Part shown: piece by piece, positions 6,033 to 26,551 of the stretch
Layout of the letters: every line of letters starts with the position of its first letter
Numbering within the stretch: position 1 is the first letter of the stretch
DNA from: Candidatus Harpocratesius repetitus
GTDB lineage: Archaea > Asgardarchaeota > Lokiarchaeia > Sigyniarchaeales > Promethearchaeaceae
Direction: 5' to 3'
Assembly: GCA_021498095.1 (NCBI GenBank)
Contig: JAIZWK010000001.1
Coordinates: 4,110,001 to 4,142,000 of the forward strand
DNA: 32,000 nucleotides
Position numbers and translations under genes: made by a program
Notes under the pieces: generated by a model
What the model was told of the DNA's origin: nothing
Databases searched by the model: none
What the model saw: the letters and a program-made list of their open reading frames with translations, nothing else

Positions 6033-7490
6033 ATGGTTCCGGGCTTTGCAATTACAGAATATCCGAATACAGCGGAAATTTATGCAAAAATGAATCAATT
6101 GCTCCAACTTCCTTTGTACCGGGTCAAAACCGCTAATATGAAACAGTATTTGAATTTTTTTGAACAAAAATGTTCAAAATCAAAAGCAATAATTACTGAA
6201 GCAAAACAATATATACCAGGAGGAGTTCAACACAATCTTGCATTTAATTATCCCTTTCCACTAGTAATTAATAAAGCAGATGGGGCTTATTTGTACGATG
6301 TAGATGGAAATCAATATATAGATTTTTTACAAGCGGGAGGCCCAACTCTTTTAGGAAATAATTACGCACCCGTGCGCGAAAAAGTTATCAATGTTATTAA
6401 AGAATGTGCTCCTGTAACGGGGTTATTTCATGAATATGAATTAAAACTTGCAAAAGAAATCCATCATCATATGCCAACAATCGAAATGTTTCGGATGTTA
6501 GGTAGTGGTACAGAAGCAGATATGGCGGCAATTAGAATCGCCCGACTTGCGACAAAAAAAAAGAAAATTATAAAGATGGGTGGTGCATATCATGGTTGGA
6601 GTGATCAACTAATATATGGAATTCATTTACCCGGAACTAAACGATTTGAAGCTCATGGAATTCCAGCATCTTGTTCTCGACATACTCAAGAAGTATTTCC
6701 TAATGATATTCATGCTTTGGAGAGACAACTTCGATTGAACAGATTTCAAGGAGGAACCGCCGCGGTTCTGTTAGAACCAATTGGTCCTGAAAGTGGAACA
6801 CGACCAATTGATAAAGAATATCTTCATCGAGCGAGAGAATTGTGTGACAAATATGATGCATTATTAATTTTTGATGAAGTTGTTACTGCTTTTCGATTAG
6901 GTATGGGGGGTGCTCAAGGTTATTTTAATATTAAACCAGATCTCACCGTTTTTGGTAAAATAATTGCAGGAGGATATCCCGGTGCAGGCGGTGTTGGCGG
7001 ACAAGCAGAATTGATTAGCTTTTTAGCAGCAGGAGTAGAAAGCGGTAAAAAAAGAGCATATGTTGGAGGAACTCTTTCTGCTAATCCATTAAGTACAGCC
7101 GCAGGTTATTATTCTATAAAAGAAATTGAAAGAACCGATGCAGCAATTAAAGCCGGACAAGCTGGAGATAAATTAACTAAAGGTCTTCAAAAAATAATTG
7201 ATAATTATAGTCTTCCATTTGTTGCCTACAATCAAGGATCGATATGCCACTTAGAAACTGTAGGAGCGATGTTTCTCACTTTAAATTACCTTAAGATCTT
7301 TAAGATTTTAAAAGAAATTAAGGAACGTAAATTTGCAATGGAAGAATACGGTGCTGCTTATATGGCAGAAGGAATGATCACGCTAGCTGGAAGTAGGTTG
7401 TATACCAGTATGGCGGATACATCAAAAATAATAGATGAAGCTTTATCAAGATTCGAAAGAGTATTTCAAAATATTCAAATACCAGAATAG
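6033..7490 (+). CDS. PLP-dependent class III aminotransferase, HemL/GSA-aminomutase-like (true substrate uncertain)
   Basis: Motifs: IPGGV, GAYLYDVDGNQYID, SGTEA, GAYHGWSD, LIFDEVVTAFR, FGKIIAGGYP (PLP lysine), GGTLSANP. Confidence 0.85.
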   Translation: MVPGFAITEYPNTAEIYAKMNQLLQLPLYRVKTANMKQYLNFFEQKCSKSKAIITEAKQYIPGGVQHNLAFNYPFPLVINKADGAYLYDVDGNQYIDFLQAGGPTLLGNNYAPVREKVINVIKECAPVTGLFHEYELKLAKEIHHHMPTIEMFRMLGSGTEADMAAIRIARLATKKKKIIKMGGAYHGWSDQLIYGIHLPGTKRFEAHGIPASCSRHTQEVFPNDIHALERQLRLNRFQGGTAAVLLEPIGPESGTRPIDKEYLHRARELCDKYDALLIFDEVVTAFRLGMGGAQGYFNIKPDLTVFGKIIAGGYPGAGGVGGQAELISFLAAGVESGKKRAYVGGTLSANPLSTAAGYYSIKEIERTDAAIKAGQAGDKLTKGLQKIIDNYSLPFVAYNQGSICHLETVGAMFLTLNYLKIFKILKEIKERKFAMEEYGAAYMAEGMITLAGSRLYTSMADTSKIIDEALSRFERVFQNIQIPE

Positions 7491-7574
7491 AGGTGTATTC
7501 TTCCTATTCTTTAGGTAGAAAAGATAATATCTTCATATTATATTTATATTTTTCGCTTCTTTCTTCGATATTAT

Positions 7575-10500
7575 ATGAAGCAAAGTAATTCAAATTCTCT
7601 CCGTAATGTTGAAATCTTGGAAAATAATACCAAATACGTTGGAATTAATATTGGTGCAGTATCAGTCAATGTAGTATGGAAAGATAAGAATGGAACATAT
7701 TTCAGTAAGAAACAAGGCCATTTAGGAAATCCTCAAATGATTTTAAACGATATTTTAATTTCAAACCAACTAATTCATAATAATTCTAATTCTTATTTTG
7801 AAGTTTCAGGTACTTTTGGTGAAATTTCTGAGATTAAAGCTATTGAAAGAGGAGTCCAGCAAATTGAGCAACAAATAGATGCTGTTCTTTCTTTAGGGGG
7901 AGAAGCATTTGTCCTATATATTCTCAATAAACAAGGACATATTGTTAATATTTTATCCCAAGACAAATGTGCGGCAGGATCTGGAGAATTTTTCCTGCAA
8001 CAAATTGAACGACTTAATTTAAGCTTAGAAGAAGCTATTGATCTGGCAGAAAAAGGAAAAAAAATTCAAATCGCTTCACGTTGTTCTGTGCATTGTAAGT
8101 CAGATGTAACACATAAGCTTAATCGTGGCGAGGCTTCCATTGAAGATATCTTATTCTCTTTGATTTCGAATATGATTAACAAAGGTTTAGCAATGATCCA
8201 GCAATCGCGCGTTTCAATCAAAAATTTATTAGTAATTGGAGGGCTCACACTAAACAAAGTTGTTGTTCAACAACTTCATCAAACTTTATCAGAAATAAAT
8301 GTAATTATTCATCCATTTTCTTCTTTATTTGAAGCATATGGAACCGCTTTACTGGTACAAGACGTACCAACAAAAAGAGAACCCTCATTAAAAATTCAAC
8401 AAACTTTCACAATATTGCCTTCATTAGAAAAATACAGCCATTTAGTCAGAAGTATGCAAAATTTTCAAACAAATGATTCTACAAATATCGAAAAAATAAC
8501 CAAAATTGATCCTTTACAAGCTTATATATTAGGAATCGATGTAGGATCGACCACGACAAAAGCAGTTCTATTTCACCCGGACAACCGCCAGATTCTTGCA
8601 TCACATTATGGTAGGACAAATGGAAACCCTATTGAAGCCACCCGGAAATGCATTCAAGAAATAATTAATCAAGTAGGTTCTGTAAATATTAAATTAATTG
8701 GAGTAACAGGCTCAGGGAGGCAAATGGTGGCCGCTTATTTAGGAACTTCAGCAGTATATAACGAAATTTCAGCTCATTCAGAAGGAGCGGCTTATTTTGA
8801 TCCTGAAGTTGATACAATATTTGAAATTGGGGGTCAAGATGCAAAATACATGTTTTTAGCAAATGGAGTTCCTGTAGATTATGCCATGAATGCATCATGT
8901 TCAGCAGGGACAGGATCATTTTTAGAAGAAAGTGCGAAATGCGACTTGGGGGTAACTGTATATGATATCGGAGATGTCGCAATTAAGTCACCCCGCGCAG
9001 TTAGATTTAAAGCCGATTGTGCTGCTTTTATCAATTCTGATATTCGAACTGCTCTTCAAGAAGGTTATTCTAAACCTGAAATTATAGCTGGTTTAGTCTA
9101 TTCTATTGTAAATAATTATTTAAATAAAGTAAAAGGAACCCGTCCTATTGGTAAGAAAATATTCCTACAAGGTGGTGTTGCAAAAAATCGAGCAGTTGGA
9201 AATGCTTTTGCCCAAGTTACAGGGAGAGAAATAATTATTCCCCCATTTCCAGAATTAATGGGAGCATTTGGAATTGCTTTAATCGCACAAGCGAAATATA
9301 AAGAAGGTGAAGTATCAGCAATGCCTCCAAATACCACTTTAGAGCATATTATTGCAACTCCCTTGAAACATTTAGGTTCCTTTACATGTAAATCATGTCA
9401 AAATTACTGTCAAATCGAACGGTATGCAGTAGGAAATCGAAAATTTCCATTTGGAGGTAAATGTACTCGCTATGAACATATTTGGAGACAAACAAAATCA
9501 ATCAAAGAACAGGAAGATTTGGTGAGTTATAGAACAAACCTCATGTTTCCTGCTTCAAATACAAGAACTTCACAAGATGTTATTGATAATTCATCAACGG
9601 AAGAATTACAGAGAATAGGTATTCCACGCGCATTATTAACTCATAGTCTTTATCCCCTTTTTTCAACCTTCTTTACGGAATTAGGGTTTGAAGTTATTTT
9701 GTCAGATATTGATCCAGATTTTGCACTAATTCCCAATGCACCACTATGTTACCCAATGCAAATATTTCATGGAGCTGTAGCTGATTTAGTCAAAAAAGGA
9801 GTTCATTTCATCTTTACTCCTCATATTACAAAAATGAAGAAATCTGAAAAATGGTATAGTTCAACTTTTTGCCCGATTACTCAATCTGGTCCATATATGG
9901 TTGCACAAATCTTTGATCATGTTGAATTCTTAATACCTGAATTGGATTTTAGTGAAGGATACTTTGAAAATGACAGTATCATTAGAATGGCTGTTGAAAA
10001 ACTCCACATTGATGAAGATGTGGCGAATGCTGCCTATAATACCGCAGTACTTGCTCAAGAGATGGTTGAAAGAAAACTAAAAGAAAAAGGCCGTCAAGTT
10101 CTTAAAAATCTAATAAAATCAGGTCAAACAGGAATAATAATTGTTGGTCGAAGTTATAATGTGTATCCTAAAGAGACATCTCAAAGTATTCCTAAAAAAT
10201 TGACAAGTATGGGTGTTCAAGTTATCCCATTTGATTTTTTGGAGCCAATATCTGAATCAGATACTCCATGGTATTTCGCAAATTATGTAACTGAAGCAGT
10301 AAATTTAGTAAAGCAGCATGATAATCTCTTCTTGCTTTATATCAATAATTTCAGCTGCACTATCGATGCATTTATTCAACATTGGGTTAGATCTCAAATG
10401 GATGCTAAACCATATTTATTAATGGAACTAGATGCACACATGGCTGATGCTGGTACTCAAACCCGCATTGAAGCATTTTTAGAAATTATTAAAAATTACC

Positions 10501-13742: not shown

Positions 13743-14057
13743 TTATCCACCAGAATGATGAGTGACCATATCAATTTCTGCTACTTCAACTGATCTTCCT
13801 TCAATTTGTTCCACATTTCGCTTTAGGTCAGTAAAAAGATTACCTTTAGAAACTTGTCTACCTTGATTAAAGAGTTGGTGTGATTCATAAAGAGTAGCCA
13901 ACTGCTTTGATTGCAGCGGTTTACCTACATTTTCTAATTCATCGATAGCTTCTGAAATGATACTATCTATTGACATATGTTCCTGGTCAATTTTGATATA
14001 GAATGGAGAATCACTCAAAGCAGTATTAATTTTTAAAATATAAGTTGAATTCTTCAT
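13743..14057 (-). CDS. Ubiquitin-like (beta-grasp) protein with a C-terminal diglycine
   Basis: Ends EIDMVTHHSGG-stop. The internal HQLFNQGRQVSKGNLFTDL parallels ubiquitin QRLIFAGKQLEDGRTLSDY. Start placed at ATG 14057 (GAAGGT upstream); 14072 is an alternative. The 14186 start in the track adds an implausible extension. Confidence 0.7.
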   Translation of the reverse strand: MKNSTYILKINTALSDSPFYIKIDQEHMSIDSIISEAIDELENVGKPLQSKQLATLYESHQLFNQGRQVSKGNLFTDLKRNVEQIEGRSVEVAEIDMVTHHSGG

Positions 14058-14427
14058 GATATTTACCTTCATATTTGAATTTTTTTGCGGTAGAATACAA
14101 AGACTCACTTCTTTTTCATACAAGAAGAGTGAATCAATGCTTCTTTTAAAAAAAAATATTTTAAAGAGATCTTTTTTACCTTTCATCGATTTGAAATTTT
14201 TAATCTAACAAAAAAGATCTAGATAAAATATATATAATTTAATTATTTAAATCTATCTCGCAAAATACATAAAATTGTTCTAAAAAAATAAAATTTCATC
14301 AATGTGAAAAAGGATTATATTTTTTCTTTGGCAAAAATCGAAACATTTTATTTTATATCAGGCAAATTTTAATTAAATAAATATGTTTTTAAATAATTTT
14401 TTAATTTATTATTAGAGTTAGAGAACA

Positions 14428-15516
14428 GTGAACGACGATAGTGATTATTTAGTAGAACGATTTACAGTTACACCTGAAGATTTCCCAGTATTAGCAAAAC
14501 TAATCGCAGAATCTTTCTTGAATGAAGAATTGACAGAAGAAATGGGAGGAACAATTCAATTTGATGAACAAACATTTAATATTATGTTCGGATCTCCAAT
14601 AATATCCCGAGATTTCTTTGTACGCACAATTTATAAACCTACAAATGAAGTTGTTGGCTTTTTAGGTGCGATACCCCGAGCAGTGAATATGAAAGGTAAA
14701 ATTTTAAATTACGCAGTTCCTTCTTGGGCAGCAGTTCATTATAAACATAGAAGAAAAGGATTAGCATTTAAAATGGGACTAAAACTACGAGAAATTGGTA
14801 TTGAAAAGAATGTAGATGGAGGATTCAGCATTCATGAACCAGAACAGCATGGAATTGATACCTCAAAAGCTGTTGCAAGAGAAACAAATTTAGAAATGAT
14901 CAAATTTGCATTAATACACCAATTTGTTGTTCGATGTTTTGATGTTACGCGTGTTGCGAGTGTTATAAAACTTAAATGGTTTGAAAAATTAGCATTTCGA
15001 TTATTTCAATCAGTTCCTAAGAACAAGAATCCTCATGTACGGAACTATCGACCATCTGATGGAGAACAAATGTTTCTTATGATGCATGATCATATCGATC
15101 GCAATGAAGTTTCATTAGTTAGAGATCATGATGATTTCTTATGGTATTTAAACCAACCGGGAGTTAACTGTGTTGTCTATGAAGATCCAGTAGGAACAAT
15201 AAAAGGATTTATTTTAGCATGGAAAATGAATTTAGCTGGTTTTGGTAATTCGATCCCATTCGGATGGCTCGATTTAGTGCATACATATCGCTTAAATACG
15301 AGAGAAACGAAAGATTTAGCAAATTACCTTTGTATAACATCGAAAGAATTAGGGTGGGCAGGATTACAAACACCTTATATTCCTTATTTTGAAGCAAAAC
15401 CGTTTAAAAAAGCGAAATTTATTTTTTATAGTAAAAAAATGTCAATTGATGTTTTTAATTTGAAGAAATTTAATATCCCTACTAATGTTTCGCATTTTTA
15501 CTTTGATTGGAGATAA
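14428..15516 (+). CDS. Tandem-GNAT acyltransferase resembling glycylpeptide N-myristoyltransferase (NMT)
   Basis: VVGFLGAIP and VHYKHRRKGLA match NMT LVGFISAIP and VHKKLRSKRVA. The second GNAT half is also collinear to the C-terminus. GTG start. Confidence 0.72.
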   Translation: MNDDSDYLVERFTVTPEDFPVLAKLIAESFLNEELTEEMGGTIQFDEQTFNIMFGSPIISRDFFVRTIYKPTNEVVGFLGAIPRAVNMKGKILNYAVPSWAAVHYKHRRKGLAFKMGLKLREIGIEKNVDGGFSIHEPEQHGIDTSKAVARETNLEMIKFALIHQFVVRCFDVTRVASVIKLKWFEKLAFRLFQSVPKNKNPHVRNYRPSDGEQMFLMMHDHIDRNEVSLVRDHDDFLWYLNQPGVNCVVYEDPVGTIKGFILAWKMNLAGFGNSIPFGWLDLVHTYRLNTRETKDLANYLCITSKELGWAGLQTPYIPYFEAKPFKKAKFIFYSKKMSIDVFNLKKFNIPTNVSHFYFDWR

Positions 15517-15607: not shown

Positions 15608-17227
15608 ATGGAAAATATTAATATGCTCAAAAATGCATTGTTAAATACATTTATGATTAAATTTTTCCCTCCACTTGAAAAATATACTGTTAAGCAATCA
15701 ATGGGAATATTTGCCAGTATTTTTGTTGGTTCCACAATGTGGCTAGCACACTTTGTTTTGGAAATTAAAGCAATTTTAGAAGCAAATTTACCGCTTTACT
15801 TTGCAATTTTTCCATATATAGGGTGTATTTTTGGGGGAATTTTTGCATTTATCATGTGTAATCGAGTAAATTTCGATTTTTCCTACTTATTCTTGTTTGG
15901 ATGTTATATTGGCAATTATATTCTTCAAATATGGATACACAACAAAATCTTTACAATAATTTCAATCTTCTTAGCTGGTCTTTTAAGTGGTTCTTTTTAT
16001 GGATTTCTTCATGTTCAATTAATTCCTGCGTTTTCTGATTCATATTATAGTGGTCGAATGAATGCATTATCATATTGTGGAGTTGCAACTTTAATTATAA
16101 TTGATATATTGCTTACTCAAGCAAATCTACCGATATGGAGTTCTATATATTTAGCTAGCATCTATTTTATCTTCTTCTTAATATATATTCTCTCACGTTC
16201 TGAAAGAATTATCTTCAAACAAATCACATTGACTCCAAAAGAATACATTAACCAGCCCAAAATAGGATTTAAAATATTATTGAATCTTTTATGGGGTTTT
16301 TTCTTAACCACTCCTGCTTATGTGATTATGACTTATTACATTTTATGGGGACGTGAAGCAGAGATATTTCATTTTATATTGGTCTTTTTTATTTCAGTAG
16401 GAATTTTTTCTCCCTTTAATGGATATCTACTAGATCATTTTGGTCGTAAAGGTGTAGTATTAACAGGATTTGGAATATTATCATTTGCTTTTCTCTTTTT
16501 ACCTTTTTTAAATTTTGAAAATACATGGAACTGCCACCTATTAGCTATTATTTTAGGAATCGGTTTAACTATGGCAATTACGACTAATACTCTCGTTAGT
16601 ATGGAATTAGCAAAAACTCACACAACTTATCGAGAAAGTGCAACTAGTTATATATTGATGGGAGTAGGGTTAAATCTTGGTGTAATTTTTGTGGAGATAT
16701 TAAAACCACTCTTTTCAGAGAATTTTTTTGTATTACCAGCAGCAATGTCGATTATTTTTGTTATTGCAACAATTGTTATCACTCAGCTAGAAGAATCTCT
16801 TCCATCTTTAAATGAACGAAAATGGAAATCAGATCTACTTTTTCTTTATTTATTTACAAAAACAGGTATTCCTATTGCGTCTTTTGGATTTAACGACATG
16901 CAAGCTAAAGAATATAGTCAACAGACACTCATGAGCGGAGCATTGACCGCAATATCCAAGATAATTCAATATTTAGTTCACAACAAACAACCCATTAAAG
17001 TAATTAAACAGGAAAATTCACTAATTTTAATTGAAGAAGGTATAGAATATTCCGTAGCATTAGTTATAAAAAAGGAATATGAAATTGCAAGAATTTTGAT
17101 GCAGAAATTTCTCACGCATTTCGAAATCTTATGTCAAAAAGAAAAAATAATAGCAAGTTCTCAAAATTTTATTCAGATAAAAAATAAATGCGTAATTGAA
17201 GAACTAGTTAAGAATTATTTTAGATAA
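15608..17227 (+). CDS. MFS-type transporter fused to a C-terminal soluble longin-like domain
   Basis: About 12 hydrophobic segments and MFS motif A (GYLLDHFGRKG). The last ~130 aa are soluble: LYLFTKTGIPI...LMSGALTAISKII...IKVIKQENSLILIEEG...ALV...FLTHFE. Confidence 0.75.
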   Translation: MENINMLKNALLNTFMIKFFPPLEKYTVKQSMGIFASIFVGSTMWLAHFVLEIKAILEANLPLYFAIFPYIGCIFGGIFAFIMCNRVNFDFSYLFLFGCYIGNYILQIWIHNKIFTIISIFLAGLLSGSFYGFLHVQLIPAFSDSYYSGRMNALSYCGVATLIIIDILLTQANLPIWSSIYLASIYFIFFLIYILSRSERIIFKQITLTPKEYINQPKIGFKILLNLLWGFFLTTPAYVIMTYYILWGREAEIFHFILVFFISVGIFSPFNGYLLDHFGRKGVVLTGFGILSFAFLFLPFLNFENTWNCHLLAIILGIGLTMAITTNTLVSMELAKTHTTYRESATSYILMGVGLNLGVIFVEILKPLFSENFFVLPAAMSIIFVIATIVITQLEESLPSLNERKWKSDLLFLYLFTKTGIPIASFGFNDMQAKEYSQQTLMSGALTAISKIIQYLVHNKQPIKVIKQENSLILIEEGIEYSVALVIKKEYEIARILMQKFLTHFEILCQKEKIIASSQNFIQIKNKCVIEELVKNYFR

Positions 17228-26043: not shown

Positions 26044-26161
26044 TACTTATAGGTGATCATGATGGTGATAAAAATGATCTTACCATTTTTTTTTAAGGAA
26101 TTAAAATGAATTAATATTTGAGAAAATAAAGTGAATATAAAGAGGTATGGAGTCGATCGAG

Positions 26162-26551
26162 ATGGGAGCAAAAAAATCAACAAAAACCAGAAAAAACATT
26201 AAAACAACCTCCCGTCGATCAGAACATTGGAAAACTCTCCCAAGGGATAAAAAAGGAAGATGGACTAAAGCCAGAAAGAAAAAAAAATCAACAAAAAAGC
26301 ATATTAAAAGTTCATCAGCAAAATCAAAATCAGTCCGAACCCAGAGAACTGTGCCAATCAAAAATAAAGCAAGTACAGTTAAATCCCATACATCTCGTAC
26401 CTCTAATATTAGTATTTCTTCTCAAACTAATAATTTATGCCCTCGATGTGGCGGGGATATGAAATTTCATCGAATTAGATGTGGTCCGGAAAGATTAGTT
26501 TCAGTAACAAAATGCGAAATTTGTAACTTTTGGTTACCAATTGGAAAATAA
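26162..26551 (+). CDS. Lys/Arg/Ser/Thr-rich protein with a C-terminal Zn ribbon; probable N-terminus MGAKKSTK
   Basis: C-terminal CPRC...CEICNFW. In-frame ATG 26162 has GGAG about 9 nt upstream, whereas ATG 26147 directly abuts its GAGGT. Confidence 0.7.
   Translation: MGAKKSTKTRKNIKTTSRRSEHWKTLPRDKKGRWTKARKKKKSTKKHIKSSSAKSKSVRTQRTVPIKNKASTVKSHTSRTSNISISSQTNNLCPRCGGDMKFHRIRCGPERLVSVTKCEICNFWLPIGK

Follow-up and report, generated by a model that had tools for sequence, protein, structure and literature searches.

N-myristoyltransferase (NMT) is, to our knowledge, a textbook example of an enzyme confined to eukaryotes. Here we describe a gene of the Asgard archaeon Candidatus Harpocratesius repetitus whose product is a distant prokaryotic homologue of NMT. 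The gene lies in a stretch of 32,000 nucleotides of contig JAIZWK010000001.1 (positions 4,110,001 to 4,142,000), which is called the window below; coordinates count from its first letter, unless a locus or genome is named with them.

N-myristoylation has been regarded as a marker of eukaryogenesis, in the words for which Meinnel et al. (2020) are cited in PMC12219266. NMT-type folds outside eukaryotes were already noted in 2025 by that same paper (PMC12219266, Nat Commun 2025, Fig. 6 and Supplementary Table 8), which defines NMT-type double GNATs by a C-terminus that reaches the active site and reports AlphaFold models of this type "surprisingly" in archaea and bacteria, including a Thorarchaeota protein (A0A3L6J856) and one of Euryarchaeota that is annotated as NMT. 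It compares its few AlphaFold DB entries in a dendrogram of structures, and the window protein falls within its definition of the NMT type. Beyond it, the present analysis covers the conservation of the family, its invariant tail, its distribution in Loki and Heimdall lineages, its exchange with bacteria and its sequence kinship with NMT. A literature search for NMT or myristoylation together with Asgard, Loki or Heimdall returned no dedicated report, PMC12219266 being the exception on NMT-type folds.

Kinship with N-myristoyltransferase

The window protein is a true but distant prokaryotic homologue of NMT, as a sequence-only reading had proposed, and profile, hhalign and structural matches bear this out. 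Its open reading frame (ORF) is intact and encodes 362 residues from a GTG codon. GTG is taken as the correct start because the next ATG downstream, at M39, would drop a conserved N-terminal strand (Y7, E10, F12). The databases hold a record of the identical 362-residue protein and 139 homologues, mostly of 360–365 residues and 45–85% identity, under the names Promethearchaeota/Lokiarchaeota, Heimdallarchaeota, Thor-, Gerd- and Sigynarchaeota. The genome, with the window on its single 4.36-Mb contig, carries one copy of the gene in 4.36 Mb.

Taken singly, the protein matches Acetyltransf_9 (24.8 bits) and PF01233 (22.3 bits) in Pfam, both under the threshold of 25, and gives no Pfam match to PF02799; phmmer against the PDB returns borderline E-values of 0.004–0.009, with top matches that are all NMT. 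A profile of 45 family members places 36 NMT sequences ahead of any other protein of the PDB (best E 3.9e-11), in alignments that span the N-domain and run into the C-domain. HisAT/NAT16 and Ta0821 are absent from these profile matches, and Eis appears at E ~3. PF01233 is matched by 43 of the 45 members at E<0.01 (best 3e-10), and PF02799 weakly by three.

Giant-virus NMTs, found by means of a back-translated NFLCVHK-x-LRSKR pattern, took the place of eukaryotic NMTs; with 194–252 bits on PF01233 and PF02799 they are bona fide members. The family aligned to them in hhalign with 98.1% probability (E 7.6e-14) over 308 columns and both halves, while the control, a tandem GNAT of other Asgard genomes against the window family, gave 0.8%. 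Identity of the window protein to NMT is 11–16%. The collinearity that had been claimed by eye is recovered by hhalign in essentially every block (window/NMT): TIQFDEQTF..GSP/FRFDYSTEF..MPP; VVGFLGAIP/LVGFISAIP; PSWAAVHYKHRRKGLA/VNFLCVHKKLRSKRLA; VVRCFD/YHRVIN; VRNYRPSD/IRPMVETD; VYEDPVGTIKGF/VIIDSTDNITEF; DLANYLCITSKELG/NLMNDVLIMAQRNEF; and FKKAKF..VFNLK/LNKLKF..IYNWK.

The AlphaFold2 model was template-free and built on the 45-member family alignment (predicted local distance difference test, pLDDT, 93.2; predicted template modelling score, pTM, 0.90). The full GNAT alpha/beta pattern occurs twice in it, at residues 1–170 and 201–344, and its secondary structure confirms the two GNAT-like halves that had been read from the sequence. 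All top 50 Foldseek matches in the PDB are NMT, with E down to 2e-21 and a template modelling (TM) score of ~0.75, and NMT is also the top and majority match among AlphaFold DB clusters and Swiss-Prot structures. VIA, a representative-based structural search that is independent of Foldseek, found NMT at Z 31.2 and 29.2 (335 and 328 residues; root-mean-square deviation, rmsd, 2.8–3.0 Å); NMT superpositions overall reach Z 31–32 over 328–337 residues at 2.6–3.0 Å. Other tandem GNATs in VIA are MAB_4324 (Z 22.4), PH 3ddd (19.6), Eis (19.2), HisAT (14.9), MshD (14.8) and Ta0821 (12.0), with FemX and FemA of the Fem family at 13.2–13.5 (FemX 13.5). Specific affinity to NMT had been set beforehand as the test of kinship: Eis and FemX are not the best structural matches, because NMT, at Z 31–32, far outscores the other tandem GNATs.

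The C-terminal carboxylate is the catalytic base in NMT (PMC12219266). In structural alignments, model residue 362 pairs with the last residue of the human (496), yeast (455), C. albicans (451), A. fumigatus (492), L. major (421) and P. vivax (410) enzymes; against engineered human truncations the alignment ends at 359 with 493 (deltaC3) and at 360 with 494 (deltaC2), in exact register. The proposal that the chain ends at the position equivalent to the NMT end thus holds in the model, and the terminal carboxylate is predicted to occupy the position of the catalytic carboxylate of NMT. At the level of the predicted model, the window protein agrees with the NMT-type class of PMC12219266 both in the fold over its two halves and in a C-terminus that enters the active site as in NMT1. 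In the 45-member alignment R362 is invariant and Y358, F359, D360 and W361 are at least 90% conserved; a (W/L)R end is present in 65 of 67 genomic copies and in 114 of 115 database homologues. In more distant relatives the chain closes with a comparable motif, aromatic-x-D/E-x-R.

Table 1. Features of the gene in the window and of related loci in other genomes
Feature	Position	Strand	Basis
Complete gene, 362-residue NMT-type double-GNAT protein	14428..15516	+	GTG start, stop 15514-15516; ORF list and translation
N-terminal GNAT domain, predicted acyl-CoA-binding half	14428..14937	+	Residues 1-170; model secondary structure, PF13527 and PF01233 on residues 15-116, HMMER/hhalign against NMT N-domain
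S99-W100-A101-A102, strand beta4, equivalent to N-F-L-C of NMT signature NFLCVH	14722..14733	+	Alignment to NMT
R108-R-K-G111-L-A113, GNAT motif A (Q/R-x-x-G-x-G/A), CoA pyrophosphate	14749..14766	+	Family consensus HQRKGLA
H136-E-P-E-Q-H-G142, family-specific motif, beta5/alpha4 junction	14833..14853	+	Conservation, model helix 141-152, hhalign gap
C-terminal GNAT domain, equivalent to NMT_C (acceptor-binding half in NMT)	15028..15459	+	Residues 201-344; model, hhalign columns to residue 346
C-terminal tail, residues 345-362, end ...FYFDWR-COOH	15460..15513	+	Alignment to NMT last residues, conservation
Bacterial-MAG loci with the gene	L016, L017, L027, L036, L040, L048, L053, L059, L075-L078, L080		
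Heimdall neighbour examples	L043:1422-2576 (-), L045:7184-7756 (+), L035:9416-10174 (-)		Equivalents in ~10 Heimdall loci each

The likeness to NMT includes a tandem GNAT fold over ~335 residues with the acyl-CoA-binding half first in both, and the differences that the sequence-only reading had listed are real: the NMT signature EINFLCxHK (EINFLCVHK in that reading) reads VPSWAAVHYK, YTAG reads FSIH, and the chain ends in FYFDWR, so that the tail is Y-F-D-W-R in the window protein and G-L-V-L-Q/L in NMT. GNAT motif A, defined as Q/R-x-x-G-x-G/A (PMC12219266), is present as R108-R-K-G-L-A113, with A113 at least 90% conserved in the family and the preceding H107 invariant; NMT reads L-R-S-K-R-x-A at this site, whereas the window family keeps the canonical GNAT form. 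The HEPEQHG motif (residues 136–142; E137 and P138 at least 90% conserved, G142 invariant) stands on an extra helix, opposite a gap in hhalign, at a site that in NMT is only a short loop following YTAG. In the C-domain, G260, W265, G271, G279, W280, H285, G309, W310, Q314, P316, Y320, F321 and F331 are invariant. The window protein begins at about human residue 148, and the eukaryotic N-terminal region, with its ribosome-binding extension, is missing. Many of the giant-virus NMTs (L108-L130) are likewise compact (338–348 residues), lacking the extension at the eukaryotic N-terminus, and their chains close with ...INIIIP or ...INIKIP, unlike GLVLQ/L.

Three class assignments were considered and rejected. 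The sub-threshold Pfam scores, the absent signatures and the position outside the NMT clade in the tree described below mean that the protein is not to be classed as NMT sensu stricto (EC 2.3.1.97; PF01233 plus PF02799). HisAT/NAT16 and Ta0821 are also double GNATs with the acyl-CoA-binding half first and occur in archaea, including Asgard lineages, but they match the structure at Z 14.9 and 12.0 against 31 for NMT and give no sequence-profile match; moreover, the HisAT chain stops just past its last strand and the enzyme relies on a beta-hairpin Trp, whereas the window protein continues for an NMT-like tail of ~18 residues. The HisAT/NAT16 type is ruled out by this tail, the low Z and the lack of a profile match. 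Eis and MAB_4324, from actinobacteria, are tandem GNATs, of which MAB_4324 is the next-best structural match after NMT (Z 22.4); Eis differs in a third, SCP2-like domain and aligns at an rmsd of 6.0 Å (Z 19.2; profile E ~3). The Eis type (GNAT-GNAT-SCP2) is ruled out, as two GNAT halves and the tail account for all 362 residues.

Phylogeny, distribution and exchange with bacteria

An exhaustive phmmer search revealed farther full-length relatives of 330–411 residues and 19–27% identity, whose taxonomy is taken from the labels of Atlas clusters and from two metagenomic contigs, both short. Their profile is closer to NMT than that of the window family, both in the PDB (E 3.4e-25 versus 3.9e-11) and in hhalign (E 4e-21 versus 7.6e-14), and the two groups align with each other at E 8e-57, forming one superfamily. 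The nearest Atlas clusters by language-model features and shape are bacterial GNATs of ~350 residues (TM 0.81–0.87) from Aminicenantota, Pseudomonadota, Acidobacteriota and Myxococcota; clusters of eukaryotic NMT reach TM values up to 0.81.

The phylogenetic tree (58 rows, LG+C20, rooted on the Eis-like family) is to be read with giant-virus NMTs standing for the eukaryotic ones, long branches and an uncertain root. NMT forms a clade (100/99) whose sister is a clade of all prokaryotic NMT-like proteins (99/97), and the window family (100/100) lies several nodes deep within the latter. Forcing the window family together with NMT costs 22.6 log-likelihood units, which the approximately unbiased (AU) test does not reject (p 0.09). 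On this tree the family is one branch of a largely bacterial NMT-like superfamily, and the whole superfamily is sister to NMT. A phylogeny across Asgard archaea, bacteria and giant viruses had been called for: the sister relation of NMT to the prokaryotic clade emerged from it, and the suggested role of the Asgard family as ancestor of NMT did not. Since the family belongs to a wider prokaryotic one, in which other members match NMT better, the view that eukaryotic NMT descends directly from this Asgard family finds no support.

Of the 301 genomes sampled from the phylum, ~43 gave strong matches, concentrated in three families (6/6, 24/28 and 11/11 genomes); the survey returned no strong match in a further family of the same order with 69 genomes, many of them ~100% complete. 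Lokiarchaeum ossiferum has an orthologue (L042). Several Heimdall genomes carry two to four copies, and tandem duplicates are seen at L036:5992-7089 with 7254-8405 and at L073:5986-7074 with 7197-8300, with four matches in G199. Such paralogues, of which a single genome can hold up to four, occur in some Heimdall archaea and some bacteria and hint at diversified substrate specificity.

The gene is not restricted to archaea. Orthologues with 37–55% identity and the same DWR end are present in metagenome-assembled genomes (MAGs) labelled as bacteria, namely Smithella, Syntrophaceae, delta/proteobacterium, Leptospirales, Neomarinimicrobiota and Fusibacter. Seven of these MAGs yielded a 16S gene, which is bacterial in every case (~1560–1610 bits with the bacterial versus ~1020–1077 with the archaeal model); in two bacterial genomes it shares a contig with the NMT-like gene. 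In the family tree the bacterial sequences are interleaved with those of Loki and Sigyn lineages, which requires at least five changes of domain and therefore repeated inter-domain transfer. This branch is thus exchanged between Asgard archaea and anaerobic bacteria, possibly between syntrophic partners. Asgard specificity of the family is contradicted by 16S-verified bacteria with copies ~50% identical.

Sister-family Asgard genomes that lack the gene encode another tandem GNAT of 421–456 residues (L092:1039-2304 (+), L094:910-2181 (-), L093 and L095), with an Acetyltransf_9 match, a second half that resembles NMT_C at a score near the threshold, and additional sequence at the C-terminus. It aligns by hhalign with 95% probability to NMT and 0.8% to the window family. 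It was considered as a second Asgard NMT_C candidate and set aside on its Eis-like length, its Acetyltransf_9 match and the 0.8% value.

Proposed function and rival readings

The window protein, a compact prokaryotic NMT homologue of the NMT-type double-GNAT class, is probably an N-acyltransferase that is active and depends on acyl-CoA. Its homology to NMT, its fold, its C-terminal register and its conserved motifs are shown by the analysis, whereas catalytic activity, acceptor and acyl chain length are inferred. The strong conservation between Loki and Heimdall members (45–55% identity) argues that the protein is functional. In the proposed mechanism, acyl-CoA would be bound by the N-terminal GNAT half through the Q/R-x-x-G-x-A motif (R108–A113), and the acceptor amine would enter the cleft between the GNAT halves. 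Backbone amides at NFLC form the oxyanion hole in NMT (PMC12219266); by analogy, the beta4 bulge at S99–A102 may take this role and polarise the thioester. The free carboxylate of R362, held by the near-invariant YFDWR tail, would act as the active-site base as in NMT. The HEPEQHG motif might have a catalytic role, with the family-specific E137 as a possible helper. The acyl donor need not be myristoyl-CoA. Our best guess for the acceptor, held with slightly more conviction than doubt, is an N-terminal alpha-amine, on a peptide or a protein; a small molecule is a tentative second choice.

Several observations weigh against this assignment. The residues around the reactive amine in NMT are not conserved (the Asn of NFL is replaced by S/A/G and the Thr of YTAG by S/G/A), and the FGxGDG loop of NMT becomes a basic FxFYSKK or FFPKK in the window family. 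The C-terminal register is read from a predicted model, in which pLDDT is ~80 over the last 20 residues. The gene neighbourhoods of 72 loci give no consistent functional clue. Two complete Heimdallarchaeum genomes carry the gene only as a pseudogene, and it is therefore dispensable there: in Ca. Heimdallarchaeum endolithica PR6 (L082:3735-6672) it is split by a 1.8-kb insertion that carries a 500-residue TnpB/Cas12f-like ORF on the opposite strand, and in Ca. Heimdallarchaeum aukensis PM71 (L079:5863-7083) it contains in-frame stops (two TAG and one TAA). Furthermore, PMC12219266 stresses NMT-type activity in archaea and bacteria as unverified.

A somewhat unlikely alternative is that the protein is a small-molecule N-acetyl- or N-acyltransferase, with a metabolite such as an amino acid, an amino sugar or a polyamine as its substrate, which shares with NMT only the ancestry of its fold. 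Double GNATs that have been characterised outside eukaryotes (MshD, Eis, the clavulanate tandem GNAT, GlmA and HisAT) mainly act in this way and are all detectable structural relatives; the canonical motif A of acetyl-CoA-type enzymes is kept; the superfamily is widespread in bacteria, where NMT-type N-terminal lipidation is unknown; and basic residues in place of the acidic substrate-contact loop of NMT, with an invariant terminal Arg, would suit an acceptor that bears a carboxylate. However, the whole C-terminal, peptide-binding half of NMT is retained, 335 of the 362 residues superpose at 2.6–2.8 Å, NMT stands at least 9 Z units ahead of the small-molecule tandem GNATs, and the gene has no biosynthetic operon context. 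The unconserved catalytic-site side chains and the Heimdallarchaeum pseudogene would also fit a tandem GNAT that has no catalytic activity and serves as a scaffold or in binding, but motif A is intact and the beta-bulge region, the tail and ~27 invariant positions are kept across Loki, Heimdall and bacterial members, which makes this reading very improbable.

More specific versions of the N-acyltransferase reading were also weighed. That the family N-acylates protein N-termini or lysines in Asgard archaea and some anaerobic bacteria, by the C-terminal-carboxylate chemistry of NMT, is at present rather doubtful as a full statement; in some Heimdall lineages such acylation could be coupled to a nearby Sir2 deacylase and M28 aminopeptidase. 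It is less probable still that the protein is a functional NMT, or a long-chain N-acyltransferase, specific for N-terminal Gly, and that eukaryotic NMT descends directly from this Asgard enzyme. NMT is indeed the best match on every sequence and structure measure, with the C-terminus in register; nearly every genome of several Heimdall and Loki families has a member; the AU test leaves a sister relation to NMT unrejected; and the Heimdall MAG 12F4_9, for which an Arf-like protein with a Gly2 N-terminal helix has been described (PMC11914678), carries the NMT-like gene (L056). Against it, the best tree puts the family inside the prokaryotic clade and not beside NMT, other prokaryotic relatives are nearer to NMT, the gene is common to bacteria by transfer and patchy in Asgard archaea (43/301 genomes), and the signature and substrate-contact motifs of NMT are not conserved. 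In addition, Asgard Arfs are reported to be without recognisable myristoylation sites (PMC11914678), and few of the 33 Arf-family GTPases of this genome, some with ambiguous starts, can begin with Met-Gly; Arf GTPases were thus rejected as obvious Gly2 substrates. Outside the window, the Arf-family GTPase at G000:C1:721465-722010 (-), matched by the Arf model from position 4, starts MGIKMLINYKKKEI...; with this Arf-like Gly2 N-terminus it could be a usable test substrate.

Genomic context and significance

No neighbour family is found in more than 13 of the 72 loci, and a conserved operon was therefore rejected. Within Heimdall subclades, an M28 aminopeptidase gene lies divergently upstream, a DinB_2 protein is encoded directly downstream on the same strand, and a gene of the Sir2 family (NAD-dependent deacylases) lies within 4 bp to ~5 kb, at 4–15 bp in three loci, ~2.3 kb in five and ~4.9 kb in two. 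These neighbours are suggestive of a link to N-terminal or lysine acylation, as a clade-restricted lead.

In the window, the gene is flanked by genes for a RimJ/L-type GNAT, an MFS protein and an ATP-grasp protein, and by an ORF without Pfam match. This last ORF, at 13743-14186 (-), is divergent, encodes 147 residues that end in ...HHSGG, and is not conserved as a neighbour elsewhere. At 15608-17227 (+), 90 bp downstream on the same strand, a membrane protein of 539 residues matches only MFS_1 in Pfam (residues 231–409), its soluble C-terminal ~130 residues being without match. The N-terminus encoded at 26147-26551 (+) is ambiguous: the first ATG, at 26147, gives MESIEMGAKK..., and a Met-Gly start needs the second ATG, at 26162.

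The importance of the family is tempered by its nesting in a mostly bacterial superfamily, its movement between domains and the notice of the NMT-type class in 2025. Judged from the model, it appears to keep the most unusual catalytic feature of NMT, a C-terminus in exact register, and it raises the question of whether acyl transfer to protein N-termini existed before eukaryotes. This question is directly testable, because the family is conserved, L. ossiferum has a copy, and the members are small proteins without a predicted membrane segment. If the family does N-acylate proteins, enzymatic fatty-acylation of proteins for membrane targeting would have been present in prokaryotes before eukaryogenesis; and if its members were Gly-specific ancestors of NMT, protein N-terminal lipidation would be older than eukaryotes.

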